From a virus: DNA of 64,000 nucleotides. Both the position numbers and the translations under genes were made by a program. The notes below the pieces were generated by a model, which was given only the letters and a program-made list of their open reading frames with translations, was not told where the DNA came from and searched no databases. This document shows, one piece after another, positions 7,350 to 26,883 of this stretch (its first letter is position 1; each line of letters opens with the position of its first letter). The stretch is from IMG/VR virus record IMGVR_UViG_3300031993_000069; one strand, given 5' to 3'.

Positions 7350-7433
7350 GCCCCGGTGGTGAAATGGTAGACACAAGGCACTTAAAATGCCTCGCCGAAA
7401 GGCATGCCAGTTCGACTCTGGCCCGGGGCACCA
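7350..7433 (+). tRNA. tRNA-Leu(TAA), class II
   Basis: Cloverleaf with acceptor GCCCCGG/CCGGGGC, anticodon loop CTTAAAA, long variable arm, A73 and encoded CCA. Confidence 0.8.
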
Positions 7434-7438
7434 CTCAT

Positions 7439-7515
7439 GGCGTCATGGAGAAGGGGCTTAACTCAGCAGCCTCTCAAGCTGCCATTCGCGGGTTCGAATC
7501 CCGCTGACGTCACCA
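7439..7515 (+). tRNA. tRNA-Glu(CTC)
   Basis: Acceptor GGCGTCA/TGACGTC, anticodon stem GCAGC/GCTGC with loop CTCTCAA, T-loop GGTTCGAATCC, CCA. Confidence 0.65.
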
Positions 7516-7636
7516 AGTTGTTAAAAATTTTTAGAAAATATATTTACAATTTAAAAAAATAATTGTATAATATTAATGAGCGTTGAAAAAAGATACGCTA
7601 AATTAAAATGGTCGCAAGACAGGAAGGAAAAGATTT

Positions 7637-7750
7637 ATGGCAAAAGTTATGTTTGGGAACATTCATGAACAACGTAATGATTCAGTATATGGTTGCTGGA
7701 ATATTTTTGCTACTCTTGGATCATCCGGTTTTGTGCAGGTTAATCGATAA
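7637..7750 (+). CDS. small hypothetical peptide (37 aa) inside the tRNA island
   Basis: RBS AGGAAGGAAA 7 nt upstream of the ATG; followed by a strong terminator. Confidence 0.3.
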   Translation: MAKVMFGNIHEQRNDSVYGCWNIFATLGSSGFVQVNR

Positions 7751-7780
7751 GATTAATTAAGAAGAATAACGCATAAATTA

Positions 7781-7812
7781 GGGTGGTCCGAAAAAGACCA
7801 CCCTTTAATTTT
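7781..7812 (+). terminator. rho-independent terminator
   Basis: GGGTGGTC-CGAAAAA-GACCACCC followed by TTTAATTTT. Confidence 0.8.
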
Positions 7813-7813
7813 C

Positions 7814-7899
7814 TGGGGAGATAGCCAAGCGGCAACGGCAGCTGACTGTAAATCAGCCCTCTGACGAGTTCGTAGGTTCGAGTCCTACTCTCCCCACCA
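7814..7899 (+). tRNA. tRNA-Tyr(GTA)
   Basis: Acceptor GGGGAGA/TCTCCCC, anticodon loop CTGTAAA, long variable arm, CCA. Confidence 0.8.
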
Positions 7900-7903
7900 A
7901 CAT

Positions 7904-7980
7904 GGTGTATGGAATCCGACGGTTTTGGATGCTAGTCTGTGAAACTAGATCATTGGGTCCGACTCCCAGCATGCACCCCA
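7904..7980 (+). tRNA. tRNA-His(GTG) with encoded G-1
   Basis: G-1:C73 pair, acceptor GTGTATG/CATGCAC, anticodon loop CTGTGAA, CCA. Confidence 0.75.
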
Positions 7981-7985
7981 GTTAT

Positions 7986-8061
7986 GGGCCGGTAGCTCAG
8001 TTGGTAGAGCACGTGCCTGAAGAGCATGGTGTCGGCGGTTCGATCCCGCCCTGGCCCACCA
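7986..8061 (+). tRNA. tRNA-Phe(GAA)
   Basis: Acceptor GGGCCGG/CTGGCCC, D-arm GCTCAGTTGGTAGAGC, anticodon loop CTGAAGA, CCA. Confidence 0.85.
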
Positions 8062-8076
8062 TAAGAAAGGAAAAGT

Positions 8077-8505
8077 ATGAAAGTTGTATTCTTAGATATC
8101 GATGGCGTATTGAATGATGCTGTTAATATCCACAACCTGATGGATGACAAACCAACAAAAGAGCACTTAGACTGCCTAAAAGCAATCTTAGATGCTACTG
8201 GTGCAAAAGTCGTACTGTCCTCAACTTGGAGATTATTCCCAAACTCCAAGAATATCGTAAAGAATTGTTTACGAAACATTGGCTCTGATATCTATGATAT
8301 AACTAAAGAGCTGCCAAAAGGGAGAGGTGCCGAAATAAAAGAATGGCTTAGTCGACACCCGGAGGTAAATCAGTTCGTTATCTTAGATGACGACATTGCT
8401 GATATTAAGCCATATTACCCAGCGAATATCGTAAAAACGACATTTTATAGGGGATTGCTTCCTCATCACATTGAGCCAGCAATAAAAATCTTAAATGCCG
8501 AGTAA
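8077..8505 (+). CDS. HAD-superfamily hydrolase/phosphatase (142 aa)
   Basis: N-terminal FLDIDGVL (HAD motif I DxDG) and a later ILDDD motif. Sits inside the tRNA island. Confidence 0.6.
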   Translation: MKVVFLDIDGVLNDAVNIHNLMDDKPTKEHLDCLKAILDATGAKVVLSSTWRLFPNSKNIVKNCLRNIGSDIYDITKELPKGRGAEIKEWLSRHPEVNQFVILDDDIADIKPYYPANIVKTTFYRGLLPHHIEPAIKILNAE

Positions 8506-8519
8506 AATCGGCATCACAT

Positions 8520-8596
8520 TGGAGCGTAGCTTAGCTGGTTAAAGCACTCGGCTGATAACCGAGAGACCGCCGGTTCAAATCCGGCCGCTCCAACCA
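8520..8596 (+). tRNA. tRNA-Ile(GAT)
   Basis: Acceptor TGGAGCG/CGCTCCA, anticodon stem CTCGG/CCGAG with loop CTGATAA, CCA. Confidence 0.8.
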
Positions 8597-8600
8597 ATCT

Positions 8601-8675
8601 TGGGGAGTAGCCAAGCGGTAAGGCACGTGGCTTTGAACCATGTATGCGAAGGTTCGAACCCTTCCTCCCCAGCCA
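8601..8675 (+). tRNA. tRNA-Gln(TTG)
   Basis: Acceptor TGGGGAG/CTCCCCA, loop CTTTGAA, CCA. Confidence 0.8.
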
Positions 8676-8743
8676 GTTAGAGCCTATACTTATTTCTAAA
8701 AACTTCCGACTGCAAATCAGAATAATATAGTTAGGCCAAAATT

Positions 8744-8817
8744 AGGGGTATCGTCCAACGGTAGGACTACGGTCTCCAAAACCGTCTATCTGGGTTCGAA
8801 TCCTAGTACCCCTGCCA
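8744..8817 (+). tRNA. tRNA-Trp(CCA)
   Basis: Acceptor AGGGGTA/TACCCCT, anticodon loop CTCCAAA, G73, CCA. Confidence 0.85.
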
Positions 8818-8821
8818 ATGT

Positions 8822-8909
8822 AGAAGCTTGTGTGAGCGGTTGAAACAGTTGGTCTAGAAAACCAATATGCTGAAAGGCATCGAGGGTTCGAATCCCTCAG
8901 CTTCTGCCA
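8822..8909 (+). tRNA. class II tRNA-Ser with anticodon loop CTAGAAA (anticodon AGA, A34)
   Basis: Acceptor AGAAGCT/AGCTTCT, G73, long variable arm TATGCTGAAAGGCAT, anticodon stem TTGGT/ACCAA. Confidence 0.6.
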
Positions 8910-8928
8910 AAAATATTTAAAAAAAGTA

Positions 8929-8957
8929 TTTACAACCTAAATAAATGGTTGTATAAT
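8929..8957 (+). promoter_or_regulatory. sigma70-like promoter
   Basis: TTTACA-N16-TGTATAATAT. Confidence 0.6.
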
Positions 8958-9190
8958 ATGAATGTGAATATGAGGACTGAAAAGACCATCACTCAGTAAG
9001 TTTGAATAGAGTAGGTATGACGACTCCTGACACCGCTTAGTCGTCATGTCTGTGAACAAGATTTCACAGCGGCAGGCTAATGCCGTAAAACTTAGTCTAG
9101 GGTACAGCTGATGCGAACGTGGCAAAGGCCGAGGCCGAAGAAGGGCATAACAGGAGCGGACACCCTCTAAAGAGTGAGGCCACCAGATAT
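8958..9190 (+). ncRNA. unidentified structured ncRNA candidate (~230 nt) transcribed from the 8929 promoter
   Basis: ORF-free and GC-enriched. Contains several perfect hairpins (ATGACGACT...AGTCGTCAT, CTGTGAA...TTCACAG, CGGCA...TGCCG). Ends where tRNA-Glu begins. Confidence 0.35.
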
Positions 9191-9267
9191 GGTGCCGTGG
9201 AGAAATGGTTTAACTCATCACCCTTTCAAGGTGACATTCACGGGTTCGAATCCCGTCGGCATCACCA
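9191..9267 (+). tRNA. tRNA-Glu(TTC)
   Basis: Acceptor GGTGCCG/CGGCATC, anticodon stem TCACC/GGTGA with loop CTTTCAA, CCA. Confidence 0.8.
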
Positions 9268-9272
9268 AATTT

Positions 9273-9359
9273 GGAGAGCTGTGATAATTGGTAGTCGGGC
9301 GGTCTTGAAAACCGTTGGGTCGAAAGGCCTTCAGGGTTCGAGTCCCTGGCTCTCCGCCA
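9273..9359 (+). tRNA. tRNA-Ser(TGA), class II
   Basis: Acceptor GGAGAGC/GCTCTCC, loop CTTGAAA, long variable arm, G73, CCA. Confidence 0.85.
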
Positions 9360-9467
9360 TTATCACTTATTAGTACCCACTTGCTCAATACTAGTAATGA
9401 GCAGACAAAAAAGAACGCCAGGTGAAATAAATTTTAAGGGTTTAAGTTCAGAGTAGCCACTTATCAT

Positions 9468-9544
9468 GGGTCACTAGCTCAATTGGTTAGAGCAGCCGGC
9501 TGTTAACCGGCAGGTTGTGGGTTCGAGTCCCTCGTGGCCCGCCA
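9468..9544 (+). tRNA. tRNA-Asn(GTT)
   Basis: Acceptor GGGTCAC/GTGGCCC, loop CTGTTAA, CCA. Confidence 0.8.
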
Positions 9545-9682
9545 TACGGTCCTTAGATATATTACCTTCTCGTGGTGGGACTGAACAGCTAAAGGATACT
9601 TGGAATTAATAGTATCGGCTAGACGAAACTTATATCGTAAAGACACGACTGGCCTGACGTGCGTAAATAACGGCCACCAAAT

Positions 9683-9757
9683 GGATCGCTCGTATATCGG
9701 TTAGTATACTTGGCTGTCTACCATGGGAGGAGGGTTCGATTCCCTCGCGGTCCGCCA
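9683..9757 (+). tRNA. tRNA-Asp(GTC)-like (atypical anticodon stem)
   Basis: Acceptor GGATCGC/GCGGTCC, loop CTGTCTA, T-arm GAGGGTTCGATTCCCTC, CCA. One mismatch in the anticodon stem and a pyrimidine at position 37. Confidence 0.5.
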
Positions 9758-9945
9758 TTGGAGCCTATACTTATTTCTAATTTGAAGATTCCAAGCCGCC
9801 ATTCGTAGGTTCGAATCCTACCATACCAGTATGGTATGTAGCCAAGCGGGAAGGCAGCGGCCTCAACAAAGCCAGTTAGGCCAAAATTAATTAAAACAAA
9901 TAAAGGAGATTAAGCTTATGTAATTATTTTAAAGGAGAAAAACTT

Positions 9946-10200
9946 ATGAATAGTTACTTTCGTAAAAAATACGAGAAACAAAAGCTTAAAAAACTAGCTG
10001 AAAAATGTGCTGGTTGGTGTGGCGGCAGCTATTATAGCGAAAGAAAAGGCCGTTACATTCGTTTTTGGAAAAGCCAAGGTAAAAATTCCTTCTGGGCTAC
10101 CGAAAAAAGATATGGCAGACGCATCTATCGAAGAAAGGCTAATAAAGTTGATTATAAATTAGCTAAAAAAGCCTTCGATCTTTGGTGGAATGTTTGGTAA
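9946..10200 (+). CDS. small basic hypothetical protein (84 aa)
   Basis: ORF with RBS AAAGGAG; Lys/Arg-rich. Confidence 0.5.
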   Translation: MNSYFRKKYEKQKLKKLAEKCAGWCGGSYYSERKGRYIRFWKSQGKNSFWATEKRYGRRIYRRKANKVDYKLAKKAFDLWWNVW

Positions 10201-10232
10201 AATGCTGTATAATATTAAGAGGTATACTCAGT

Positions 10233-11192
10233 ATGACTAAAATTATCCAAAATTTTTCAAGCAAAAAGCATATTAAAGCACTTCCTGTATTTGATATATT
10301 ACTTTGGAGTGCTGGATTACTTAATTTTAAAAAATTAGGCTATAAAACGAAGCTCTATTGTGAAAAATCAGATATTCCCTTCTTAAAGCGCTGGGGTTTA
10401 TATGATCTCTATGATGAAATTGATAGTAGATATCTAACAAAATTAGAGGAAGATGAGCGCTTTAAACAAATTGATGGTAATTGGTTTTGGTCTGTAAGAA
10501 AGCTATTTTGCATTGAACATGAATATAGTCTTAAATCAAAAGATAAATTCATGTATTTCGATACTGACATCTTACTTTATGACCATATTGAATTGCCAGA
10601 TTGGGCAAACCTATTCGTCTGGTCTATTGAAGAAGAGCCTATTTATATTCCTTGGGAATTCATGTCAGTTCCAGAAGGTTATAAAAAGCCTGAAGAATTC
10701 GATGATGACATGATTGCCTATAATTGTGGTATCTTAGCATTCAGCGATAAAGAAAAGTTTGAGCAATATTTTGCTGAATACTTGAAATTTACACAAGGAA
10801 ATCCCTGTAAATTATTACAAGGAGCTAATACTTCTGAGAAAACCCTCAAAAATATTTGGGCCTGTAATGCAGAGCAACGTATCCTATTAAATATTTCTCG
10901 TGCTGGAGACTGGAAAACTGTTATATTTGCAAATCCAGAGCAAGAAACCGGAATTCTTGGTTTCTATAAGGGCGGTAAACATTTCTATTTACTTCGTGCA
11001 ATTCTAAGAGATTTCACAGATGAAACTCAGGAGTCATTTAGAAACTTCTGGTTAGATATGTATAATGAAAATATCAAAGAATGCTTAGAGGTATTAGAAA
11101 AAGAAAATCCAGCACAATTAAATATATTCTTAGAAATTCCTTGGATTAAAAATTTATATAAATATAATTTCAAGGTAAAAGAATATAAGTAA
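10233..11192 (+). CDS. hypothetical protein (~320 aa)
   Basis: ATG at 10233 follows the TGTATAATAT promoter (10205) and RBS AAGAGG. The track ORF 10182 start lies upstream of the promoter. Confidence 0.6.
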   Translation: MTKIIQNFSSKKHIKALPVFDILLWSAGLLNFKKLGYKTKLYCEKSDIPFLKRWGLYDLYDEIDSRYLTKLEEDERFKQIDGNWFWSVRKLFCIEHEYSLKSKDKFMYFDTDILLYDHIELPDWANLFVWSIEEEPIYIPWEFMSVPEGYKKPEEFDDDMIAYNCGILAFSDKEKFEQYFAEYLKFTQGNPCKLLQGANTSEKTLKNIWACNAEQRILLNISRAGDWKTVIFANPEQETGILGFYKGGKHFYLLRAILRDFTDETQESFRNFWLDMYNENIKECLEVLEKENPAQLNIFLEIPWIKNLYKYNFKVKEYK

Positions 11193-11203
11193 AGGAGATA
11201 GCA

Positions 11204-11494
11204 ATGGGCGAAGATGTTTGGACATTGGGGCTATTTACCCTAAGAGACTACAACCATACAGAACCAGAATTAAAGGCTTGTGACCATTTATTCTGTATTA
11301 CTTATCAACAAGGGCAAGAGGAATATCCAGTAATGCTCTTGTGGAAACGCGGTAAACGATGTTTTACCAGGACCTGTAATGCTCCAGGTCTTAAATTACC
11401 AAAAGATATGCAAACAGCTATGTATCTATCAAGATTATCTACGGCTGCCATTCGTATCTTAAATGGTGAAAAGTTTAACCTATTTGATATATAA
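11204..11494 (+). CDS. hypothetical protein (96 aa)
   Basis: ORF with RBS AAGGAGATAGCA. Confidence 0.5.
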   Translation: MGEDVWTLGLFTLRDYNHTEPELKACDHLFCITYQQGQEEYPVMLLWKRGKRCFTRTCNAPGLKLPKDMQTAMYLSRLSTAAIRILNGEKFNLFDI

Positions 11495-11508
11495 AATAGG
11501 CACGACAT

Positions 11509-11594
11509 TGCGGTGGAGTGGCACGGACAACTATAAACCATTCTAGGCTCATAACCTAGCGATACCGGGTTCGACTCCCGAGCACCGCAACCAG
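11509..11594 (+). tRNA. tRNA-Met(CAT)-like with an enlarged D-region
   Basis: Acceptor TGCGGTG/CACCGCA, anticodon stem CTAGG/CCTAG with loop CTCATAA, T-loop TTCGACT, CCA. Length 85 nt with a 16-nt D-loop. Confidence 0.5.
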
Positions 11595-11875
11595 GAGTAG
11601 TTTTTGTTAGTTTTTGGAGCGCCAAGATCAAATACAAACTAACAGACAGTGTGACTATGTATATGATAGCACTATTCTAAAAATCGAAAGGATATACACC
11701 AGAAATTTGGTCGGCTAGTTGGCGTAAACCTAGCGATAGGAGCGTTTGCAACAGACCCTCAATAACTGCAGTGAGAGGGCAAGCACGAGCCTCCAAGAAG
11801 AGACTGCGATGGATGAAATATTCCTAGTGCACTTGGGCCGAGGACACAAGGTTCACTGGTTAAAGAACAAAACAC

Positions 11876-11951
11876 GGGGTATTGGTGCAGCGGTTAACAT
11901 GCCTCCCTGTCACGGAGGAGACCACGGGTTCGAATCCCGTATGCCCCGCCA
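11876..11951 (+). tRNA. tRNA-Asp(GTC)
   Basis: Acceptor GGGGTAT/ATGCCCC, anticodon stem CCTCC/GGAGG with loop CTGTCAC, CCA. Confidence 0.8.
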
Positions 11952-11980
11952 GTTCTTATTCAATTTATTTAGGAGGAGTT

Positions 11981-12283
11981 ATGATTATTACATTTAATGA
12001 TTTTTATGTCAATGTAACAGAAAATAATGTGCATATTCATGACTCTTACAAGATAAAAGGTAAGAAAAGAAAGCTTGAAATCATTAATGCAATCATAGCT
12101 TTCTGTCCAGAAGCTTTCAAAACTAGAACAATTAAGTCAGTTCTGAGAGAGTGGCGTGCACATAATGTCTTATATAAATTACATATTGCTAGAAATAGCA
12201 CAATGCATACAGACATTGAAGCACATCAAAAATTATTTTATAAAATTAGCTATTTACTTATTAATATATTCGGTATAGAATAA
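11981..12283 (+). CDS. hypothetical protein (100 aa)
   Basis: ATG with RBS AGGAGGAG 5 nt upstream, directly after tRNA-Asp. Confidence 0.5.
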   Translation: MIITFNDFYVNVTENNVHIHDSYKIKGKKRKLEIINAIIAFCPEAFKTRTIKSVLREWRAHNVLYKLHIARNSTMHTDIEAHQKLFYKISYLLINIFGIE

Positions 12284-12289
12284 GTATAT

Positions 12290-12365
12290 GGCTGGGTAGC
12301 CAAGTGGTTAAGGCGTCAAGCTCATACCTTGAAGATCGTCAGTTCAAATCTGACCCCAGCTACCA
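12290..12365 (+). tRNA. tRNA-Met(CAT)
   Basis: Acceptor GGCTGGG/CCCAGCT (G1·U72), loop CTCATAC, CCA. Confidence 0.7.
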
Positions 12366-12370
12366 GGTAT

Positions 12371-12445
12371 GCTCGCTTAATTCAGCGGGAGAAGGCAATC
12401 CTTACAAGATTGAGGTCGGCAGTTCGAATCTGTCAGCGAGCACCA
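12371..12445 (+). tRNA. tRNA-Val(TAC)
   Basis: Acceptor GCTCGCT/AGCGAGC, anticodon stem CAATC/GATTG with loop CTTACAA, CCA. Confidence 0.75.
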
Positions 12446-12644
12446 CGGCATGTATGCAATTATAAAACGCAGCCTACCGGTAAAGTAGGTGCTCTGAGTA
12501 GTCTCGAAGTAAGAGCTTTGTGGAATATTGCTAAATCGAGACTTTAGTAACAATATTCTAGGTGCAATTCCCACCATGCCAACCACCGCTCGGCTAGAGC
12601 ACAGCAAATCATACGGCTGTGTAGGAGAATCCCCGAGCAACCAC

Positions 12645-12718
12645 GCGGGAATAGGACAGTGGTAGTCCATCTGCTTGCCATGCAGACTACGCGGGTTCGA
12701 TTCCCGTTTCCCGCTCCA
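12645..12718 (+). tRNA. tRNA-Gly(GCC)
   Basis: Acceptor GCGGGAA/TTCCCGC, loop TTGCCAT, CCA. Confidence 0.8.
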
Positions 12719-12789
12719 CCAGGACAGATAAAGATTAGGTTCTTTATTAGGTTCTATGGCTGGACAAATCGATAAAACCAGCCACATTT

Positions 12790-12863
12790 GCGGGTATCGT
12801 CCAATGGTAGGGCCTCTGCCTTCCAAGCAGAAGATACCGGTTCGATCCCGGCTACCCGCTCCA
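12790..12863 (+). tRNA. tRNA-Gly(TCC)
   Basis: Acceptor GCGGGTA/TACCCGC, loop CTTCCAA, CCA. Confidence 0.8.
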
Positions 12864-12892
12864 TGCAGTATTTAGAAGGAGAAAATGCAATG

Positions 12893-12985
12893 AAAACACT
12901 TAAACTCAGTAAACTAAGTCGCCGTCGCTGTATAGCATGTTTTCGTTGTTGTCTTATAAATACCGCGTTAGCTCAATTGGATTAG
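12893..12985 (+). CDS. small Cys-rich basic peptide (30 aa) candidate
   Basis: RBS AGAAGGAGAAAATGCAATG. The peptide MKTLKLSKLSRRRCIACFRCC... has CxxC..CC spacing. Overlaps the 5' end of tRNA-Arg. Confidence 0.2.
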   Translation, partial: KTLKLSKLSRRRCIACFRCCLINTALAQLD

Positions 12986-13039
12986 AGCATATCGCTACGA
13001 ACGATAAGGTTGTGGGTTCGAGCCCTACACGCGGTGCCA
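12962..13039 (+). tRNA. tRNA-Arg(ACG)
   Basis: Acceptor ACCGCGT/ACGCGGT, loop CTACGAA, CCA. Confidence 0.8.
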
Positions 13040-13045
13040 GACATA

Positions 13046-13122
13046 GGATAGGTACCCAAGTGGCTTAAGGGAGCGGTCTGCAACACCGTTATTCGTGGGT
13101 TCGAATCCCATCCTATCCTCCA
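13046..13122 (+). tRNA. tRNA-Cys(GCA)
   Basis: Acceptor GGATAGG/CCTATCC, loop CTGCAAC, CCA. Confidence 0.8.
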
Positions 13123-13125
13123 AAT

Positions 13126-13200
13126 GGTCGTATAGCTCAACGGCAGAGCGGGCTCCTTATAAGGGCTAGGTTCCTGGTTCGAATCCAGGTGCGACCACCA
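13126..13200 (+). tRNA. tRNA-Ile(TAT) (AUA-decoding type)
   Basis: Acceptor GGTCGTA/TGCGACC, anticodon stem GGCTC/GGGCT (2 G·U) with loop CTTATAA, CCA. Confidence 0.55.
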
Positions 13201-13301
13201 AAACATGTTAATAGCACGCTCCTTTATGAAAAATCTTCAATATAAAGGAGTTTATTTATTTCAGCAAATATTGTATAATATAAAAGCAAGGAGCTATAAA
13301 A

Positions 13302-13820
13302 ATGATTGGTAAACACTTAAAAGACTATAAAAAAGCTTATAAAGCTGACCGCAGAGAAAACAGAAGAACTTGCGTTAAAAGAAATTCTGATTGGAAAAAA
13401 CGCTGGTTACCATTTATTAAGTATGATCATGATTTTGACGGCTTCTTCCTAATTGAACTTATGGTTCATAAATTACATATTATGCTTGATTACTATGACC
13501 ATGGCAAATATTGTATGCAAGTCGATGAGAGCCGACTTGAAATTGTTGAAAGCTTAAAAGAAGCTTGTAGACTTGGTGATTTAATCTTAGAGGATGATTT
13601 CAATGAACCTGCCTATAAAGTTATGATGGAACACCACCGTATGTGGACTGAGCCATGCAAAGACAATAGTCATCTTTGTGAAATTAAAATGGAATGGGAT
13701 AGCCCAGAGGCTAAGGCTGAATATGATAGGCTTGAAAAAGAAACTGATGCTCTCAGAGAAAAGACTATCGATGAATTCTTCGATTTTGTTAGAAAACATT
13801 ATCGTGAATGGTGGGATTAA
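13302..13820 (+). CDS. hypothetical protein (172 aa)
   Basis: ORF behind TGTATAATATAAAAGCAAGGAG. Confidence 0.6.
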   Translation: MIGKHLKDYKKAYKADRRENRRTCVKRNSDWKKRWLPFIKYDHDFDGFFLIELMVHKLHIMLDYYDHGKYCMQVDESRLEIVESLKEACRLGDLILEDDFNEPAYKVMMEHHRMWTEPCKDNSHLCEIKMEWDSPEAKAEYDRLEKETDALREKTIDEFFDFVRKHYREWWD

Positions 13821-13861
13821 TTAGTCCTCATCGAAAATGTCATTGAAAAAAACTAGACATT

Positions 13862-13952
13862 GGAGGAATACCCAAGAGGCCGAAGGGGACGGTTTGCTAA
13901 ACCGTTAGTGGTCGCAAGGCCAGCGAGGGTTCAAATCCCTCTTCCTCCGCCA
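13862..13952 (+). tRNA. tRNA-Ser(GCT), class II
   Basis: Acceptor GGAGGAA/TTCCTCC, anticodon stem ACGGT/ACCGT with loop TTGCTAA, long variable arm, G73, CCA. Confidence 0.8.
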
Positions 13953-13957
13953 TCTAT

Positions 13958-14034
13958 GCCCCGGTAACCGAATTGGCATAGGTACTAGACTTAGAATCTA
14001 GGTTCTGTGGGTTCAAGTCCCACTCGGGGTACCA
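13958..14034 (+). tRNA. class I (77 nt) tRNA with anticodon TAG (a Leu anticodon) and short variable loop
   Basis: Acceptor GCCCCGG/TCGGGGT (two G·U), anticodon stem CTAGA/TCTAG with loop CTTAGAA, 4-nt variable loop, T-loop GGTTCAAGTCC, A73, CCA. Confidence 0.55.
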
Positions 14035-14037
14035 TAT

Positions 14038-14415
14038 GGGCTCGTACTGGTTTCGATTGGTATTTGATGCTTATGACTACAGCAAGCTGATAACTTACTA
14101 TCAAACAAAAACAAACGACAAAACAAACTTTATGGCACACCTTGCCAACAACCAAATGGTTGCTGCTCGCGCCTAGTTCGCGAGAATGGTGATTGAGCTA
14201 GATAAGGTCGAATTTAGTTCTCTATTAATCAGACCTCGATGTTTATATCTAAGTAACTCCATATAAATGTTTAAATAAAGAGTAGACAACTGCTAGTATC
14301 GGATCGAAGGACTTGAGGTTCGCCGATAAAAAGAATATTTCTCAGGTTAAAGCTGTAATTAACGTTGTGGGGGTTTGGTATCAAGACAGGAGTTCGATTC
14401 TCCTCGGGTCCACCA
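14038..14415 (+). ncRNA. ssrA: tmRNA (transfer-messenger RNA)
   Basis: The 5' end GGGCTCGTACTGGTTTCGATTGG resembles the canonical tmRNA 5' end GGGGCUGAUUCUGGAUUCGAC. The 3' end AGGAGTTCGATTCTCCTCGGGTCCACCA pairs with the 5' acceptor and has G3·U70 and A73 (Ala identity). Length 378 nt. The internal frame ...NNQMVAARA-TAG is a candidate tag ORF. Confidence 0.75.
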
Positions 14416-14419
14416 TAAT

Positions 14420-14506
14420 GGGCGAGTGGCGTAACTGGTAGCCGCAATGGTCTAAGAAGCCATTGACCGAAAGGTCGTAGGGGTTCAAGTCCCCTCTCGC
14501 CCACCA
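14420..14506 (+). tRNA. tRNA-Leu(AAG), class II, A34
   Basis: Acceptor GGGCGAG/CTCGCCC, anticodon stem ATGGT/GCCAT with loop CTAAGAA, long variable arm TGACCGAAAGGTC, A73, CCA. Confidence 0.6.
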
Positions 14507-14561
14507 GAGTTATCTTTAATAATATTGTATAATATATTAGATATTGAAAGGAATTTATCTT

Positions 14562-14894
14562 ATGTATAGTTTACAAGAATTAATTGAACATGGATATGTC
14601 GATAGTATTACAACTGATGGAACACATCTTGGTGATGGTTATACTATTGTTGTTAAACTAAGCAGATATTCTATTGGTAAGATTACAATTAATGTTGGTA
14701 TTGATGAATACTTAGATGATGCTGTTACGCTTATTAATGGTATTATTGATATTCAAGAAAGCTTAAATAAAGAAGCTAAACCGGAAGAAAAGCCAACTAT
14801 TAGACATGTAACTGATCCAGATGAAATAAAGGAAATACTTTCTGGAACAGCAATTAAAGACACAAAAATTGAACCAGAGGATTATGCGGAATAA
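14562..14894 (+). CDS. hypothetical protein (110 aa)
   Basis: ATG behind promoter TGTATAATAT (14525) and RBS GAAAGGAA. Confidence 0.55.
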   Translation: MYSLQELIEHGYVDSITTDGTHLGDGYTIVVKLSRYSIGKITINVGIDEYLDDAVTLINGIIDIQESLNKEAKPEEKPTIRHVTDPDEIKEILSGTAIKDTKIEPEDYAE

Positions 14895-15073
14895 TGTATC
14901 AAATTATTAAAGACGATAAATATTATCTATATAATGATATAGGCGAAGAATTAATGACAATTACCTTCGACAATTCATTACCAGGAGACCAAGTAGTTAT
15001 TACTACACAGGATGAAGTTTATGCTGGTCCAATAAAATTTGTTACTTTTTCTGGAGATATTCCAAAAGAGTAG
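14894..15073 (+). CDS. small hypothetical protein (59 aa)
   Basis: ATG overlaps the upstream stop (ATAATG). Coding-like composition. Confidence 0.35.
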   Translation: MYQIIKDDKYYLYNDIGEELMTITFDNSLPGDQVVITTQDEVYAGPIKFVTFSGDIPKE

Positions 15074-15089
15074 CTTGTATATTATTAAT

Positions 15090-15186
15090 AGGGGCTTAGT
15101 GTAACGGCAGCACAACGGTCTTCAAAACCGCAAAGCGGGGGCCTCCAAAACCCCAGGTGCGGGTTCGAATCCTGCAGCCCCTGCCA
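15090..15186 (+). tRNA. Trp-like opal-suppressor tRNA, anticodon TCA, with an unusual 25-nt extra arm
   Basis: Acceptor AGGGGCT/AGCCCCT, G73, CCA. The D-arm and anticodon stem ACGGT/ACCGC are nearly identical to tRNA-Trp(CCA) at 8744, but the loop is CTTCAAA. A 25-nt insertion AAAGCGGGGGCCTCCAAAACCCCAG between the anticodon and T arms forms a hairpin. Own promoter TTGTATATTATTAAT sits immediately upstream. Confidence 0.7.
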
Positions 15187-15252
15187 TATAGAGCCTGTAC
15201 TTATTTCTATCACAAACCTTGAAATTTGCACGCAGTAGTCAGGCCATTTATT

Positions 15253-15438
15253 TTTATGAAATTTAAGTATAGAATTATTTGGGTTAATACAGTTAAAGGA
15301 AAACAAGAATATGTTGATATCGATGACCAGCATATTGTATTGTTTGTCGCTAAGAAAAAAGTTAGCGATGGAATGCAAGGAGTCATCATTCAAGTTTCTG
15401 GTGATCCATCTATGACTGACCCAGATGATGCTAGCTGA
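15253..15438 (+). CDS. hypothetical protein (61 aa)
   Basis: ORF downstream of motif A. Confidence 0.3.
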   Translation, partial: FMKFKYRIIWVNTVKGKQEYVDIDDQHIVLFVAKKKVSDGMQGVIIQVSGDPSMTDPDDAS

Positions 15439-15504
15439 CCGGCTATTGATGCGAATGCTTCTGAAGCTGAAAATAAAATAATTTAAAAAAATTAAAAAAA
15501 ACTA

Positions 15505-15534
15505 TTTACAAAAAATAAAAAAGTATTGTATAAT
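15505..15534 (+). promoter_or_regulatory. sigma70-like promoter
   Basis: TTTACA-N16-TGTATAATAAT. Confidence 0.6.
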
Positions 15535-15539
15535 AATAT

Positions 15540-16180
15540 TGTGAGTGTTAAGCAAGCACTCCAAAAGTGTTCTTTGAAAAATTTTAATTGGCACCTCGAT
15601 GAAGACATCTTGCACGATGGTCGAGGCTCGGCTCTAAGATGATGATAACTGGTGGGATACTGCTGGGTAAGTTGAAACTTCCAAAGTGATGAAGAAGTAA
15701 ACCTATTTAATTAGGATTGAGTCGATGGCGCAATTTGTTGCAGCGATTTAGATGAAAACACATATGCGGGTCCGACAAGAAGCTCTGGCCGTAAGGTCAT
15801 CTCACCTGTGGTATTAAGCCTGAGAAACTTAATGCCCGGTAACTCAAAGGAAGGACGCGACTTGATGTCAAGAAATTGACTATAACTGGTAATGTGTTTG
15901 TACAAGTAGCCGTATGTCGTACTACAAAGCTTTAACAGGATATTTATTAAATACTTTGCTGAAGCTCGGTGAAAGTTGATAGGTAAAGGTCCTATCTGTG
16001 GAAGTCGTAAGACCATTGGAGAAGTTATAGGGTAGCTCCCTGTGACTCAGCCTCCCGTGAGCATCCATTAATAAAGTCAAGCAATAAGGGTTGTATGGTG
16101 AAGACCGGAAATTAAAATTTTTTAAAGAGCACTTAAAAGTATTGCTAAATTAAGTAGACTTAAAAAGTCAGAAGGAGAAA
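15540..16180 (+). ncRNA. unidentified ~640-nt ORF-free structured RNA candidate
   Basis: Lies between a strong promoter and a small ORF. GC-enriched relative to the genome, with no ORF above 60 aa on the + strand. No RNase P P4 motif (GGAAAGUCC) seen. Confidence 0.3.
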
Positions 16181-16184
16181 AAGC

Positions 16185-16274
16185 ATGTTAAACTTAGTTA
16201 CTGTTAACGTTAGACCTACAGCAACAGCCAAACCAGCGTTGGTAAGTTTTGATATGCTCATGACCTCTGATAGA
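16185..16274 (+). CDS. small peptide (29 aa) candidate
   Basis: RBS AAGGAGAAAAAGC then ATG; followed by a perfect terminator. Confidence 0.25.
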
Positions 16275-16302
16275 TAAGTTAACTTAAAAACTTAACTAAG
16301 AT

Positions 16303-16335
16303 ACCGCAGTTGTGATGAGCAGCTGCGGTTTTTTT
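16303..16335 (+). terminator. rho-independent terminator
   Basis: CCGCAGTTGTGATGAGCAGCTGCGG followed by TTTTTTT. Confidence 0.85.
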
Positions 16336-16506
16336 AAGAAAAAATAACTAGCAATGTAAAACTCATAAGAGAGACGTGACGAAACCAAGGACTTCTGTGC
16401 CTTGGTCCCAAAAGTCTAAGGGATGAAATGAAGCCAGCAGTGCACAAAAAACTTGTTGCCTGATAAAAAAAGAGGCTGGTCAGGCAGAAGAAGAACGAAA
16501 GCTAGT

Positions 16507-16590
16507 TAATTATATGGGCCGATAGTTTAATTGGGAAAATACCCGCCCTGCAAGCGGGAGTTAGGGGTTCAAATCCCCACGTGTCCACCA
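16507..16590 (+). pseudogene. tRNA-like element (Ala-TGC-like anticodon arm, T-arm and CCA) with a non-pairing acceptor stem
   Basis: CCCGC-CCTGCAA-GCGGG anticodon-like arm, GGGGTTCAAATCCCC T-arm and a 3' CCA. The 5' GGGCCGA does not pair with the 3' CGTGTCC. Confidence 0.3.
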
Positions 16591-16595
16591 TTTAT

Positions 16596-16671
16596 GGGGG
16601 TGTAGCTCATCTGGGAGAGCACTTGATTAGCATTCAAGAGGTAGCGAGTTCGATCCTCGTCACTTCCACCA
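16596..16671 (+). tRNA. tRNA-Ala(AGC), A34
   Basis: Acceptor GGGGGTG/CACTTCC with G3·U70 and A73. Anticodon stem CTTGA/TCAAG with loop TTAGCAT. CCA. Confidence 0.6.
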
Positions 16672-16735
16672 GACAGAACCTGTGCTTATTTCTAACGTTA
16701 AATTTGGGATTTAAAAAGTAGCAGCCAGGTCAATT

Positions 16736-16811
16736 GCCGCCTTAGCTCAACTGGCAGAGCAACCGCCTTGTAAGCGGTAGGTTACTGGTTCGATTCCGGT
16801 AGGCGGCACCA
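16736..16811 (+). tRNA. tRNA-Thr(TGT)
   Basis: Acceptor GCCGCCT/AGGCGGC, loop CTTGTAA, CCA. Confidence 0.8.
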
Positions 16812-16815
16812 CTTT

Positions 16816-16892
16816 GGGGGTGTAGCTCAATTGGGAGAGCGCTCGCCTTGCAAGCGAGGGGTTGCGGGTTCAAGTCCCGTCACGTTCCACCA
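16816..16892 (+). tRNA. tRNA-Ala(TGC) with a 1-nt bulge in the 3' acceptor strand
   Basis: Acceptor GGGGGTG with G3·U70, anticodon stem CTCGC/GCGAG with loop CTTGCAA. The 3' strand CACGTTCC carries one extra nt. CCA. Confidence 0.6.
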
Positions 16893-17049
16893 CTAAAATG
16901 TAAGCCTATACTTATTTCTCCTCCTAAATTGTTGGGGGCCTTAGTTAGGCAATCAAAAAATTCATGCCACGGAAGGAAAACCGTATAAACCCTTACAGCT
17001 TCGTTCTTAGCCAGACGTAGACTAAGATAAAGTTAAGCTGATGTAATTT

Positions 17050-17126
17050 CGGGAGTTGGCTCAGCTTGGTAGAGCACTTGATTTGGGATCAAGGGGTCAA
17101 GGGTTCGAATCCCTTACTCCCGACCA
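17050..17126 (+). tRNA. tRNA-Pro(TGG)
   Basis: Acceptor CGGGAGT/ACTCCCG, loop TTTGGGA, CCA. Confidence 0.8.
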
Positions 17127-17251
17127 TTAGAGAACCTGTACTTATTTCTTAGCTTTGGGAGCCGCTGTTTGTTGGTTCGAGTCCAGCCTTCCCGACCATT
17201 ATCGGGAAGTAGGCAAATTGGTAAAGCCGGCGTTTATTAGTCAGGTCATAT

Positions 17252-17327
17252 GCGCTTTTAGCTCAGTTGGGAGAGCGTCTGCTTGACGTGCAGAAGGTCG
17301 TAGGTTCGAGCCCTGCAAGGCGCACCA
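17252..17327 (+). tRNA. tRNA-Val(GAC)
   Basis: Acceptor GCGCTTT/AAGGCGC, anticodon stem TCTGC/GCAGA with loop TTGACGT, CCA. Confidence 0.75.
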
Positions 17328-17331
17328 TTAT

Positions 17332-17408
17332 GCTCCTCTAGCCCAACTGGCAGAGGCAATGAGCTCAAACCTCATTCAGTATCGGTTCGAATCCGATGGG
17401 GAGTACCA
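17332..17408 (+). tRNA. class I (77 nt) tRNA with anticodon CAA (a Leu anticodon) and short variable loop
   Basis: Acceptor GCTCCTC/GGGGAGT, anticodon stem ATGAG/CTCAT with loop CTCAAAC, 5-nt variable loop, A73, CCA. Confidence 0.5.
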
Positions 17409-17427
17409 AAAAATTATTAAAAAACTG

Positions 17428-17456
17428 TTTACAACGCAGAATAAATGTTGTATAAT
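17428..17456 (+). promoter_or_regulatory. sigma70-like promoter
   Basis: TTTACA-N14-TTGTATAAT. Confidence 0.55.
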
Positions 17457-17566
17457 TATGAATGTAAGGTCGCGATGTGTGAGCATTAAACTATCGGCCC
17501 CTCACCTCCGAAAACCGTAGGCCGAGTCGGACCTTATATATAGATTGTTCAAAAAGGAGAAGAGTT

Positions 17567-17647
17567 ATGATGACAATGAACAAGAAAAACATCAAGAATA
17601 GAAAAACTAGAAAAACTAGTTCATTTAGTCATGGCTTAATTCAGTAA
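17567..17647 (+). CDS. small basic peptide (26 aa) candidate
   Basis: RBS AAAAGGAGAAGAG then ATGATG; followed by a terminator hairpin and T-run at ~17678-17712. Confidence 0.25.
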   Translation: MMTMNKKNIKNRKTRKTSSFSHGLIQ

Positions 17648-17772
17648 AACACTAATAATACGTTAACGTAAGATAGAGTGCCGAGTGGTTAAGCCGCCCG
17701 GCATTTTTTCTGGGATTACGTTAGCGCAACGGACAGGGACGACATAAGAGCGTGCTTTTCCAGAAATCACAT

Positions 17773-17849
17773 ACCTCCGTAGCTCAACTGGACAGAGCAT
17801 CGGTCTTCTAAACCGCAGGTTGGGCGTTCGAGTCGCCCCGGGGGTGCCA
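17773..17849 (+). tRNA. tRNA-Arg(TCT)
   Basis: Acceptor ACCTCCG/CGGGGGT, loop CTTCTAA, CCA. Confidence 0.75.
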
Positions 17850-17853
17850 AATC

Positions 17854-17928
17854 GCGTCCATAGCCAAGTGGTATGGCAATCGGCTTTTAACCGATGTACC
17901 GAGGGTTCGAATCCTTCTGGGCGCACCA
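17854..17928 (+). tRNA. tRNA-Lys(TTT)
   Basis: Acceptor GCGTCCA/TGGGCGC, loop CTTTTAA, CCA. Confidence 0.8.
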
Positions 17929-17933
17929 CATAT

Positions 17934-18010
17934 GCCTCCATAGCAAAATTGGCTAATGCACCTGACTCTTAATCAGGGGATTCTGGGTTCGAGTCCCAGT
18001 GGGGGTACCA
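17934..18010 (+). tRNA. tRNA-Lys(CTT)
   Basis: Acceptor GCCTCCA/TGGGGGT, loop CTCTTAA, CCA. Confidence 0.75.
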
Positions 18011-18012
18011 AT

Positions 18013-18088
18013 GCGCCGGTAGCTCAGCCGGTAGAGCACGTGACTTTTAATCACGGGGTCCAGAGTTCGAACCTCTGCCGGCGCACCA
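18013..18088 (+). tRNA. tRNA-Lys(TTT), second copy
   Basis: Acceptor GCGCCGG/CCGGCGC, loop CTTTTAA, CCA. Confidence 0.75.
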
Positions 18089-18090
18089 AT

Positions 18091-18165
18091 GCTGATTTAG
18101 TTTAATTGGTAAAATAATTCTCTCGTAAAGAATAGTAGTGTGTTCGAAACATACAATCAGCACCA
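18091..18165 (+). tRNA. tRNA-Thr(CGT), AT-rich
   Basis: Acceptor GCTGATT/AATCAGC, anticodon stem ATTCT/AGAAT with loop CTCGTAA, T-arm GTGTGTTCGAAACATAC, CCA. Confidence 0.7.
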
Positions 18166-18261
18166 TTAGAGCCTATGCTTATTTCTAGCTCAATGAGAGC
18201 GTTTGACATTTAATCAAAAGGTATAGCTAGGCCATTCTTGATAAATCTACTGTATAATATA

Positions 18262-18500
18262 ATATGGTTGCGATGAATTTTGCAGTTTCGACCCATGTGC
18301 ACAGAAATAGAAACTGCCTATAGGTTAATGTTGACCATAGTTATTGGTGCAGAGTACGTAATCTGCGAGGTAAACTCCGGTGTATGTTCATTCGCCGACC
18401 TATGAAGCTAAAAAATGAACGGAGATAGCGTATAAAAATGATTTATGAAAAGTACGTAACGCCCATGAGGAGAGGCCTCATGCTTCAATAAAAAACAAAA
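18262..18500 (+). ncRNA. unidentified structured RNA candidate (~240 nt) behind the 18250 promoter
   Basis: ORF-free. Ends in the hairpin CATGAGG-AGAG-GCCTCATG immediately before the next tRNA. Confidence 0.3.
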
Positions 18501-18503
18501 CTT

Positions 18504-18579
18504 GCCGGCTTAGCTCATCTGGTAGAGCAATTCACTAGTAATGAATAGGTGGTCAGTTCGAGTCTGGCAGCCGGCACCA
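18504..18579 (+). tRNA. tRNA-Thr(AGT), A34
   Basis: Acceptor GCCGGCT/AGCCGGC, anticodon stem ATTCA/TGAAT with loop CTAGTAA, CCA. Confidence 0.6.
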
Positions 18580-18707
18580 TGAGCCTATACTTATTTCTAA
18601 ATTCGCCTTATAAGCGGGTGGTCGCAGGTTCGAGTCCTGCCGCCGCAACCATTACATTGCGGCGTAGCTCAGTTGGGAGAGCACCTATTTCTAGTTAGGC
18701 CTTTCTG

Positions 18708-18792: not shown

Positions 18793-19602
18793 ATGAACAA
18801 AGAAATCATTGAATTTGGAAAACGTATGGATGCTGCAGAAGATAAGGCAATGTTAGTTGACTATGCCGAACATGCGACATCTGTTTTAGATTTAGGCGCT
18901 GGAACTGGTAAAATCTCACGAGATATTGCTGAAAAATGGGGCGCACACGTCGATGCAGTCGATATTCAATTTAAGGATAATTGTCAAAATTCTGATAGCG
19001 TTACCTATTATGGTATGGGCATTAATGAATTTTTAGCTAATTATCCAGATAAGAAATATGACTGTATCGTTTTAAGTGCAATTTTACATGAGCTTTCTGA
19101 TGAATATATTGAGGAAATGTTAGCAAAATTACAAAATGTAATGAAGGCAAATTGTCGTATTCTTGTTAGAGAGCCATTTTATGATGAAGCTCTTGGCCCT
19201 GTGCTTGTGCAAGATTTAAATAAATATGTAGATTTAGTTAAAGATCATCTTCCAGCAGGCAAAGCTATTGAATTTGCTTTGACTCCAAAATTAAATTCTG
19301 GAAATTGCTTATGCATTGAAGATTTAATTGGTATTGACTGGATTAATTTATCATTTACAATTAGCTACGGTGATCAAGCCTGGGAACGCGAAAAGCATGA
19401 ATTACGCTATGCCAGGTCATTAGACTGGTGTAAAAGGGTATTTGATATGCCAAAACGCCCATTTACTGGTTTCCAAGCCCTACCAGTTTTAGATAAAACT
19501 TATAGACGTCATTTTATTAATGCAAATATTCCAGCAGAGGCATTCGATTTAATTCAATATACTGGAATGCTTGTGATTATTGATTATTCAATTATTGAAT
19601 GA
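18793..19602 (+). CDS. class I SAM-dependent methyltransferase
   Basis: Motif I VLDLGAGTGKIS; Rossmann-fold MTase layout. Ends at TGA; if TGA is sense it extends 3 codons to TAA. Confidence 0.75.
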   Translation: MNKEIIEFGKRMDAAEDKAMLVDYAEHATSVLDLGAGTGKISRDIAEKWGAHVDAVDIQFKDNCQNSDSVTYYGMGINEFLANYPDKKYDCIVLSAILHELSDEYIEEMLAKLQNVMKANCRILVREPFYDEALGPVLVQDLNKYVDLVKDHLPAGKAIEFALTPKLNSGNCLCIEDLIGIDWINLSFTISYGDQAWEREKHELRYARSLDWCKRVFDMPKRPFTGFQALPVLDKTYRRHFINANIPAEAFDLIQYTGMLVIIDYSIIE

Positions 19603-26667: not shown

Positions 26668-26883
26668 AATTTAATTATCGTATAATATTTTAGAACTTCT
26701 ATGTAGGGCAATTTTATTCGCTAAATTAATGTGACGACGTAAGTTGTCATTACATAGAAAAGGGCACAACCACGGTAACGTGGCGTCGCAAAACTAAAGG
26801 GCCTTGGGAGAGGCAGCCAGTTGCTTCTGTGAAACCGTTATTCATGGAAGTTTTTTATTTATATGGACAAGGAGAACACACAC

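Follow-up and report, generated by a model that had tools for sequence, protein, structure and literature searches.

Phage tRNAs with adenosine at position 34 beyond Arg-ACG: Ser, Leu, Ala and Thr genes in the tRNA array of a large uncultured phage

The near-absence of tRNAs with adenosine at position 34 (A34), the first anticodon position, outside Arg-ACG has reportedly been an open question since Crick's wobble paper. The IMG/VR virus record IMGVR_UViG_3300031993_000069 carries this question into a phage: its 64,000 nucleotides (nt), the whole stretch that we analysed and here call the window, contain a dense tRNA array in which a conventional Arg(ACG) is joined by Ser(AGA), Leu(AAG), Ala(AGC) and Thr(AGT). 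As the preliminary description of the locus had it, Arg-ACG is the normal bacterial A34 tRNA, the exceptions being found in Mollicutes and some Firmicutes (PMC8007984, PMC8072771). In published accounts, four-fold-box ANN tRNAs other than ACG are stated to be absent from phages (PMC8007984; bioRxiv 10.64898/2026.05.15.725136). We therefore ask whether the four genes are genuine tRNAs, what they would read, and whether their A34 is likely to be deaminated to inosine (I34).

Judged by sequence, the Ser, Leu, Ala and Thr genes are canonical tRNAs with correct identity elements. All four, and Arg(ACG), lie on the + strand and were called by both ARAGORN and Rfam (Table 1), and the Rfam tRNA model (RF00005, gathering score 29) scores the four at 52.7 bits for Ser, 52.1 for Leu, 57.4 for Ala and 62.1 for Thr. 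In the cloverleaf drawings and the extracted arms each of the four combines a 5-base-pair (bp) anticodon stem with a 7-nt loop containing U33, A34 and A37, and each gene encodes its CCA. The Ala gene has G3:U70, the Ser gene a long variable arm with G73, the Leu gene a long variable arm with A73, and the Thr gene G1-C72, C2-G71, G35 and U36, elements whose meaning for aminoacyl-tRNA synthetases is established. The placement of A at position 34 between clean 5-bp stems, first proposed from the letters alone, is thus borne out by ARAGORN, the covariance scores and the cloverleaves together, and the loop sequences given at that stage were correct, only the positions quoted for them (8822, 14420, 16596 and 18504) being the starts of the genes rather than of the loops. 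Alternative registers with 8- or 9-nt loops were rejected, as each of the four clean 5-bp helices closes a 7-nt loop and no other register is favoured or needed.

The genes are also maintained. A related IMG/VR contig, 3300031992_000025 (loci L050 and L057), has about 82% nucleotide identity to the window across the syntenic part of the array, and both Ala(AGC) and Thr(AGT) are kept in L057. The anticodon arm of Thr(AGT), AATTCA-CTAGTAA-TGAATAGGT, is identical in the window, in L057 and in an unrelated contig, L028, and the acceptor and T arms differ among the three with compensatory changes. More broadly, the 57 Thr(AGT) genes found in viral loci fall into 34 distinct sequences, whose anticodon stems come in at least 15 versions, each still complementary; they are not pseudogenes. 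The Ala(AGC) gene of L057 occupies the position that Ala(TGC) holds in the window, where the two Ala genes have their acceptor and D arms in common, and together these observations suggest a switch between U34 and A34 among Ala paralogues. Since more distant members of the clade carry Ser(GGA) and Thr(GGT), or U34 tRNAs only, the A34 set is a derived feature inside this phage clade. It is very improbable that the genes are decaying copies or prediction artefacts without a role in translation: the same array does hold degenerate pieces, namely a tRNA-like sequence with C33 and an Ala(TGC) gene with an extra acceptor-stem base, but the high covariance scores, intact stems, correct identity elements, encoded CCA and conservation with compensatory changes all speak against such an origin.

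How unusual this repertoire is can be gauged from surveys of viral and species genomes. A narrow pattern recovered Thr(AGT) from 43 viral contigs in IMG/VR, nearly all confirmed by ARAGORN and usually adjoining Thr(TGT), and Ser(AGA) was confirmed in at least 75 IMG/VR loci among at least 120 pattern matches, a few of the confirmed loci being giant viruses of eukaryotes. Leu(AAG), Pro(AGG), Val(AAC) and Gly(ACC) appeared as by-catch of these scans, and the published Lak-B1 megaphage carries Leu(AAG). When the commonest metagenomic Thr(AGT) was compared with cultured phages, its best GenBank matches turned out to be Thr(TGT) genes. Ala(AGC) is the rarest, with two IMG/VR contigs, both of large phages and one of them the relative 3300031992_000025; in 185,579 species genomes its pattern gave 13 matches, of which eight were called Ala(agc) by ARAGORN, scattered over unrelated phyla. 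In a control sample picked on an unrelated tRNA, Gly-UCC (117 viral loci, 1011 tRNAs), A34 outside Arg in four-fold boxes was limited to 4 tRNAs (0.4%) in 3 loci, the same boxes holding 50 G34 tRNAs. A34 thus accounts for 4/54 non-Arg readers of NNY codons in the control and for 4/6 in the window, a count above chance (binomial about 4e-4 if boxes are independent). No other locus has more than three different non-Arg A34 species, a number reached in L028, so that the window has the fullest such set among the loci found. A literature search, partly swamped by papers on human tRNA fragments, returned no paper describing phage A34 tRNAs. Because the IMG/VR scans and the window show natural, conserved A34 tRNAs, the published statement of their absence from phages is too strong; outside Arg they are uncommon but recurrent in phage arrays.

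What these tRNAs might do is best approached through the boxes in which they stand. In the window, ARAGORN finds no G34 tRNA for the Ser UCN, Leu CUN, Ala GCN, Thr ACN or Arg CGN box. The Ser, Leu, Ala and Thr boxes are each served by an A34 and a U34 tRNA, Thr having a C34 tRNA in addition, and Arg CGN by ACG alone, whereas the Val and Gly boxes have G34 and U34, Ile has GAT and Pro has UGG only. Codon counts over 53 + strand open reading frames (ORFs; 14,503 codons) give NNU:NNC ratios of 257:29 for Ser, 258:33 for Leu, 584:113 for Ala, 482:119 for Thr and 95:28 for Arg, compared with 495:156 for Val and 547:318 for Gly. All five A34 boxes are therefore more U-biased than both G34 boxes, a complete rank separation expected by chance in 1 of 21 cases. 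NNC codons make up 6-11% of the Ser, Leu, Ala and Thr boxes versus 18-25% of the Arg, Val and Gly boxes, a difference that points only weakly towards poor reading of C by A34, since mutation bias and the host tRNA pool shape these values too. In the four boxes, the A34 and U34 phage tRNAs (with C34 for Thr) are Watson-Crick matches to about 85-93% of codons. CGG is used in none of the 142 CGN codons, as expected if Arg(ICG), which reads U, C and A only, is the sole reader of that box. No box combines A34 with G34 in any of 38 viral arrays that have 15 or more tRNAs, which fits A34 as a replacement of G34 and not an addition to it, and A34-bearing viral loci are AT-rich, with NNU/(NNU+NNC) around 0.7-0.78. 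The U34 partner in the CUN box is a tRNA of 77 nt whose lack of a long variable arm makes it unlike bacterial tRNA-Leu; comparable 'Leu(tag)' genes of 77 nt are frequent in other viral arrays, and its amino-acid identity is uncertain.

We favour, with a probability of about one half, the explanation that the four genes encode functional phage elongator tRNAs in which A34 stands in G34's usual place for the pyrimidine-ending codons of the Ser, Leu, Ala and Thr boxes. Each A34 tRNA would read the commonest codon of its box, NNU, by a Watson-Crick A:U pair rather than by G.U wobble, and the U34 partner beside it would read the A- and G-ending codons. As the window has a GC content of 37% and uses NNU far above NNC, A34 would suit the codons that such an AT-rich genome prefers. 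A change of base 34 should leave charging undisturbed, because the alanyl-, seryl- and leucyl-tRNA synthetases do not read the anticodon and the threonyl-tRNA synthetase reads positions 35-36. Arg(ACG), and possibly Leu(AAG), would pass through the host TadA to I34, and the Ser, Ala and Thr tRNAs would function as A34 readers of NNU. Several points weigh against this explanation. The 64 kb seen are part of a genome in which a deaminase or G34 tRNAs may lie elsewhere; A34 should exceed 0.4% of phage tRNAs if A:U reading were generally advantageous; the link to codon usage rests on seven boxes and could be explained by mutation bias and the host tRNA pool; and a comparison of codon bias across other phage loci had too few G34 controls.

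Whether A34 remains adenosine depends on deaminase specificity, and here the loops differ. TadA substrates follow the consensus YUACGAA in E. coli and, in S. pyogenes, YUAMGRA (PMC11472039). The Arg (CUACGAA) and Leu (CUAAGAA) loops fit, the latter matching the Streptococcus type, whereas the Ser (CUAGAAA), Ala (UUAGCAU) and Thr (CUAGUAA) loops miss both motifs at positions 35 and 36. In Oenococcus oeni, Thr and Ser A34 tRNAs are without detectable I34, which is found in Arg and Leu only (PMC8072771). When ANN tRNAs of four-fold boxes were engineered into E. coli, they worked without being modified, and their effect was neutral or beneficial (bioRxiv 10.64898/2026.05.15.725136). Judging by the loop sequences and this literature, A34 is most likely left unmodified in Ser(AGA), Ala(AGC) and Thr(AGT), and the fit of the loops would make Arg(ACG), and possibly Leu(AAG), substrates of the host TadA. 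The preliminary description had offered two options, an expanded-specificity deaminase or unmodified A34 used for four-way wobble. The second is the better supported for Ser, Ala and Thr, without its four-way wobble, which is not required because the array also supplies a U34 tRNA for every one of these boxes. The first has against it the content of the window and the fit of only the Leu and Arg loops to the published motifs, although the rest of the genome or the host may still provide such an enzyme.

Indeed, neither tblastn with E. coli TadA (a query checked against PDB 1z3a) nor a strict [HC]AE...PCxxC scan found a TadA or ADAT homologue in the 64-kb window, and Pfam and PHROGs scans of 40 and 10 of its ORFs, two sets that overlap, revealed no deaminase domain. 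A loose [HC]xE...CxxC scan had as its sole match a zinc-ribbon ORF (62139-62564), which we rejected as a deaminase. A related-locus search for TadA relatives in viral contigs gave one irrelevant locus, and the ORFs of the cytidine deaminase (CDA) fold that lie beside other A34 arrays (L041, L069, L073, L154 and L173) are of the ComEB/dCMP-deaminase type and were likewise set aside. These results bear on the proposal that all five A34 tRNAs become I34 through an expanded-specificity deaminase, either a phage gene outside the window or a relaxed host TadA, so that decoding would resemble that of eukaryotes, I34 taking the U-, C- and A-ending codons and U34 the A- and G-ending ones. We regard it as unlikely. 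In its favour, five boxes follow the eukaryotic pattern of A34 paired with U34 in the absence of G34; C32, U33, A37 and A38 of the Arg loop recur in the Ser and Thr loops; at least one expansion of TadA specificity, to Leu, has taken place in Firmicutes (PMC11472039, PMC13249217); and enzymes directed at tRNA surround the array (HAD_SAK_2, Thg1-like, Pnkp-Rnl1 and a methyltransferase). Against this stand the lack of a CDA-fold ORF in the window, the departure of the Ser, Ala and Thr loops from both motifs, the type of the deaminases near other arrays, the unmodified Thr and Ser A34 tRNAs of O. oeni (PMC8072771), and the scarcity of NNC in precisely the four boxes in which efficient I:C reading predicts otherwise. 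That a bacterial virus uses a eukaryote-like wobble scheme, with Ser, Leu, Ala, Thr and Arg all converted by such an enzyme, appears to us slightly less probable still; if true, it would mean that a multi-substrate activity like that of ADAT arose independently of the eukaryotic one.

The O. oeni comparison leads to another proposal, that the phage copied, or converged on, the Leu, Thr and Ser A34 repertoire of a host resembling Oenococcus or Leuconostoc. The A34 set of O. oeni is exactly Arg, Leu, Thr and Ser (PMC8072771; PMC8007984 for Leuconostocaceae). Moreover, the unrelated L028 matches the window in the D and anticodon arms of its Thr(AGT), has a Leu(AAG) resembling that of the window, carries Pro(AGG) besides, and shares one IMG sample number, 3300021400, with a contig of the clade (L048/L053). 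Yet the scarcity of Ala(AGC) in species genomes described above counts against this proposal, and the more distant phage relatives carry Ser(GGA), Thr(GGT) or U34 only. No host could be assigned either: 50,697 GenBank phage records contain no near relative of the window, the ROOL RNA of the array has no blastn match in GenBank phages, and a 671-amino-acid (aa) protein encoded in the window has only distant matches in cultured phages. We consider host mirroring improbable to the same degree as the deaminase proposal.

Set beside known systems, replacement of G34 by A34 in this phage has its closest precedent in O. oeni and the Leuconostocaceae (Rafels-Ybern et al. 2019 via PMC8072771 and PMC8007984). 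A34 for Leu, Thr and Ser with Arg, and without G34 counterparts, is what we find in the window, and the restriction of I34 to Arg and Leu is the split that the loop sequences predict here; unlike in O. oeni, the set is phage-encoded and adds Ala(AGC), and its modification state is a prediction. In Streptococcus, a relaxed TadA converts Leu(AAG) to IAG (PMC11472039, PMC13249217). The Leu loop of the window fits YUAMGRA and, as in that case, is accompanied by a UAG partner and a preference for CUU among CUN codons, but the phage genes show no enrichment of CUC (33, against 258 CUU). The natural Thr(AGU) of Mycoplasma capricolum, which functions without deamination (Andachi et al. 1987, as cited in bioRxiv 10.64898/2026.05.15.725136), serves four-way reading in a minimal tRNA set; here Thr(UGU) and Thr(CGU) are present, superwobble is unneeded, and none of the non-Arg A34 tRNAs is the only reader of its box, as U34 occurs in each. 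The preliminary description had also likened the set to the eukaryotic ADAT substrates, which for ADAT2/3 are Thr, Ala, Pro, Ser, Leu, Ile, Val and Arg. The likeness extends to Ser, Leu, Ala, Thr and Arg and stops short of the remaining three boxes, as Val (GAC) and Ile (GAT) keep G34 and Pro, with UGG only, has neither A34 nor G34; moreover, unlike in ADAT systems, no ADAT-like enzyme was found in the window and NNC is avoided instead of favoured. The arrays of T4, T5, mycobacteriophage cluster C1 and huge phages are likewise dense, with a near-complete decoding set, a transfer-messenger RNA (tmRNA) and RNA-repair neighbours, but as reviewed they are without ANN anticodons except ACG (PMC8007984, bioRxiv 10.64898/2026.05.15.725136), in contrast to the four found here. 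Naturally occurring non-Arg A34 tRNAs were thus already known, and what is notable in this case is that they are phage-encoded, form the fullest set found and include the very rare Ala(AGC).

The array comprises 36 tRNAs called by ARAGORN and the tmRNA, all on the + strand, with one further tRNA-like gene found by Rfam only. Because homologues of the 671-aa protein sit on metagenomic contigs of 130-290 kb, the window represents part of the genome of an uncultured phage of large (jumbo-class) size. Records of the identical protein come from short contigs only, the longest listed measuring 66.6 kb and the two retrieved 10.8 and 6.9 kb. The Pfam and PHROGs scans also identified collagen-repeat tail-fibre-like proteins, thymidylate synthase and dihydrofolate reductase. 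Together, the genes around the array form a striking set of tRNA-directed and repair functions, ending upstream with a kinase-phosphatase-T4 Rnl1 fusion (Pnkp-Rnl1) that reaches the first bases of the window (Table 1).

This setting invites an anti-defence interpretation, in which phage isoacceptors differ from the G34 loops of the host so as to escape toxins or anticodon nucleases, with NNY decoding kept. The heavy repair and rescue content (Pnkp-phosphatase-Rnl1, HAD_SAK_2, Thg1-like, tmRNA and PhoH) agrees with such a role, published cases describe phage tRNAs whose altered anticodon loops evade anticodon nucleases (PMC10264068), and one toxin acts specifically on tRNA-Thr(GGU) (PMC13617354). 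We can, however, name no toxin or nuclease directed against the Ser, Leu or Ala tRNAs with G34 of the host, G34 is retained in the Val and Gly boxes, and the coincidence of A34 with the boxes of strongest U bias is left unexplained. As the chief reason for A34 such avoidance is unlikely, to the same degree as the deaminase and host proposals, but it is compatible with A:U reading of NNU codons, and the two are not exclusive.

Other tRNAs of the array are unusual in their own right. The tRNA called as SeC(tca), which would read UGA, is kept in the relatives L049 and L051, and reading TGA as sense makes ORFs barely longer. The anticodon of Ile(UAU), a tRNA also present in several other phage arrays, is without counterpart in most bacteria (PMC8007984) and would read AUA without lysidine.

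Table 1. Positions of the A34 tRNA genes, their partners and the surrounding features in the window (Pnkp-Rnl1: positions in locus L055)
Feature	Position	Strand	Details	Called by
tRNA-Ser(AGA)	8822-8909	+	anticodon 8856-8858; loop CTAGAAA 8854-8860; stem TTGGT/ACCAA	ARAGORN, Rfam
tRNA-Leu(AAG)	14420-14506	+	anticodon 14454-14456; loop CTAAGAA 14452-14458; stem ATGGT/GCCAT, one G.U	ARAGORN, Rfam
tRNA-Ala(AGC)	16596-16671	+	anticodon 16629-16631; loop TTAGCAT 16627-16633; stem CTTGA/TCAAG	ARAGORN, Rfam
tRNA-Thr(AGT)	18504-18579	+	anticodon 18537-18539; loop CTAGTAA 18535-18541; stem ATTCA/TGAAT	ARAGORN, Rfam
tRNA-Arg(ACG)	12962-13039	+	loop CTACGAA; canonical TadA substrate; sole CGN-box tRNA in window	ARAGORN
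tRNA-Ser(TGA)	9273-9359	+	U34 partner of Ser(AGA)	ARAGORN
tRNA, anticodon UAG (TAG)	13958-14034	+	77 nt; CUN-box U34 partner	
tRNA-Ala(TGC)	16816-16888	+	U34 partner of Ala(AGC); positional orthologue in L057 carries AGC	
The same Ala(TGC) gene, aberrant	16816-16891		one extra base in 3' acceptor strand	
tRNA-Thr(TGT)	16736-16811	+	U34 partner of Thr(AGT)	ARAGORN
tRNA-Thr(CGT)	18091-18165	+		ARAGORN
tRNA-Val(GAC)	17252-17327	+	G34 contrast box	
tRNA-Gly(GCC)	12645-12718	+	G34 contrast box	
tRNA-Ile(UAU)	13126-13200	+		
tRNA-SeC(tca)	15090-15186	+	UGA-reading; 7-bp acceptor stem, long variable arm, G73	ARAGORN
tRNA-like	16516-16587		missed by ARAGORN; 40.6 bits; loop CCTGCAA (C33)	Rfam tRNA
CAU-anticodon tRNA-like sequence	11510-11593		oversized D region; 87% conserved in L048	neither tool
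Whole array	7350-18579	+	37 tRNAs, tmRNA, ROOL RNA, small ORFs, repeated structured spacer elements	
tmRNA	14038-14415	+	between tRNA(UAG) and tRNA-Leu(AAG); tag peptide DKTNFMAHLANNQMVAARA	ARAGORN, Rfam
ROOL RNA	15571-16127	+	213 bits; inside tRNA array	Rfam
HAD_SAK_2 ('Swiss Army Knife RNA repair') domain protein	8077-8505		inside array	Pfam
Class I S-adenosylmethionine (SAM) methyltransferase	18793-19602		directly after last tRNA	
Thg1-like protein	24159-25109			
PhoH	4288-5196			
Pnkp-Rnl1 fusion gene	L055 640-2916		upstream; ends at first bases of window	
671-aa ORF	1422-3437	+	follows five-copy element cluster; syntenic with element in relatives	
Element copies	672-727, 789-847, 972-1041, 1099-1180, 1272-1320, 8681-8737, 9762-9882	+		
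Element copies (rest)	15192-15245, 16677-16731, 16903-16951, 17133-17247, 18170-18233, 18582-18701	+		
Long-form element copies	9762-9882, 17133-17247, 18582-18701; 1099-1180		1099-1180 degenerate	
c-di-GMP-I riboswitch aptamer	26753-26828	+	52.4 bits; upstream of ORF 26863-27537 (no Pfam match)	

The array also contains, as does the region upstream of the 671-aa ORF, an unannotated structured element in 13 copies, all on the + strand. It consists of an interrupted 8-bp helix, GCCUA-U-RCU ... AGY-UAGGC (for example GCCUA-U-ACU ... AGU-UAGGC), around an invariant UAUUUCU and a variable insert. Eight of the 13 copies start 1-10 nt past the CCA end of a tRNA, and a cluster of five lies directly downstream of the Pnkp-Rnl1 gene. 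The helix has strong covariation: in six of its eight pairs both partners have changed, giving 40 compensatory cells compared with 9.9 in shuffles, and none of 500 shuffles reached 40. The 3' partner was found by requiring pairing and was present in 57 of 69 loose motif matches, against an estimated chance rate of about 7%. The related loci L044-L057 hold 44 more instances, although some of these loci are assemblies that overlap one another and stem from this phage or a single relative. The structure is preserved in the orthologous copies of L057; outside this clade none was found in 300 other loci (314 loci examined).

The inserts of the element are either short hairpins, some resembling an anticodon stem-loop, or tRNA-like modules of about 90 nt. 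In these long forms the order of parts is permuted, a T arm being followed by an acceptor stem closed by a 3-10-nt loop and then by a D arm. They match the tRNA-like core of the Rfam family YrlA (Y RNA-like) below threshold, at 40.1, 28.2 and 24.4 bits, the best match (E = 6.7e-6) covering 18617-18685. The copy at 18582 has an intact anticodon-like hairpin, CUUAUAA, and its orthologue in L057 reads CUUGUAA with a compensated stem. The Pfam and PHROGs scans found no Ro60/TROVE protein in the window. The 671-aa ORF has more than 500 metagenomic homologues and no sequence match in Pfam or the PDB; its AlphaFold model (pLDDT 79) predicts a helical N-terminal half and a beta-rich C-terminal half. 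We considered this protein as a Ro60-like candidate, but Foldseek returned no PDB match for the model, and such an assignment is not supported.

Farther downstream, two long stretches, at about 29360-30130 and 30650-32800, are without credible ORFs and appear by eye more G+C-rich than their surroundings, and both follow promoter-like TTGTATA(G/A)T boxes. Their sole Rfam signal is a sub-threshold match to abiF RNA at 31484-31519, and they may be large unannotated non-coding RNAs.

Finally, our surveys place the four genes of the window within a wider picture, in which a few per thousand tRNAs of phage arrays are natural, conserved A34 tRNAs, with Thr, Ser, Leu, Ala, Pro, Val and even Gly represented. 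Their published absence from phages is thereby corrected, modestly but usefully, and this phage, with the fullest set found, becomes a natural test bed for two questions: whether unmodified A34 is tolerated, or even useful, in AT-rich genomes, and whether deaminase specificity has expanded outside eukaryotes.

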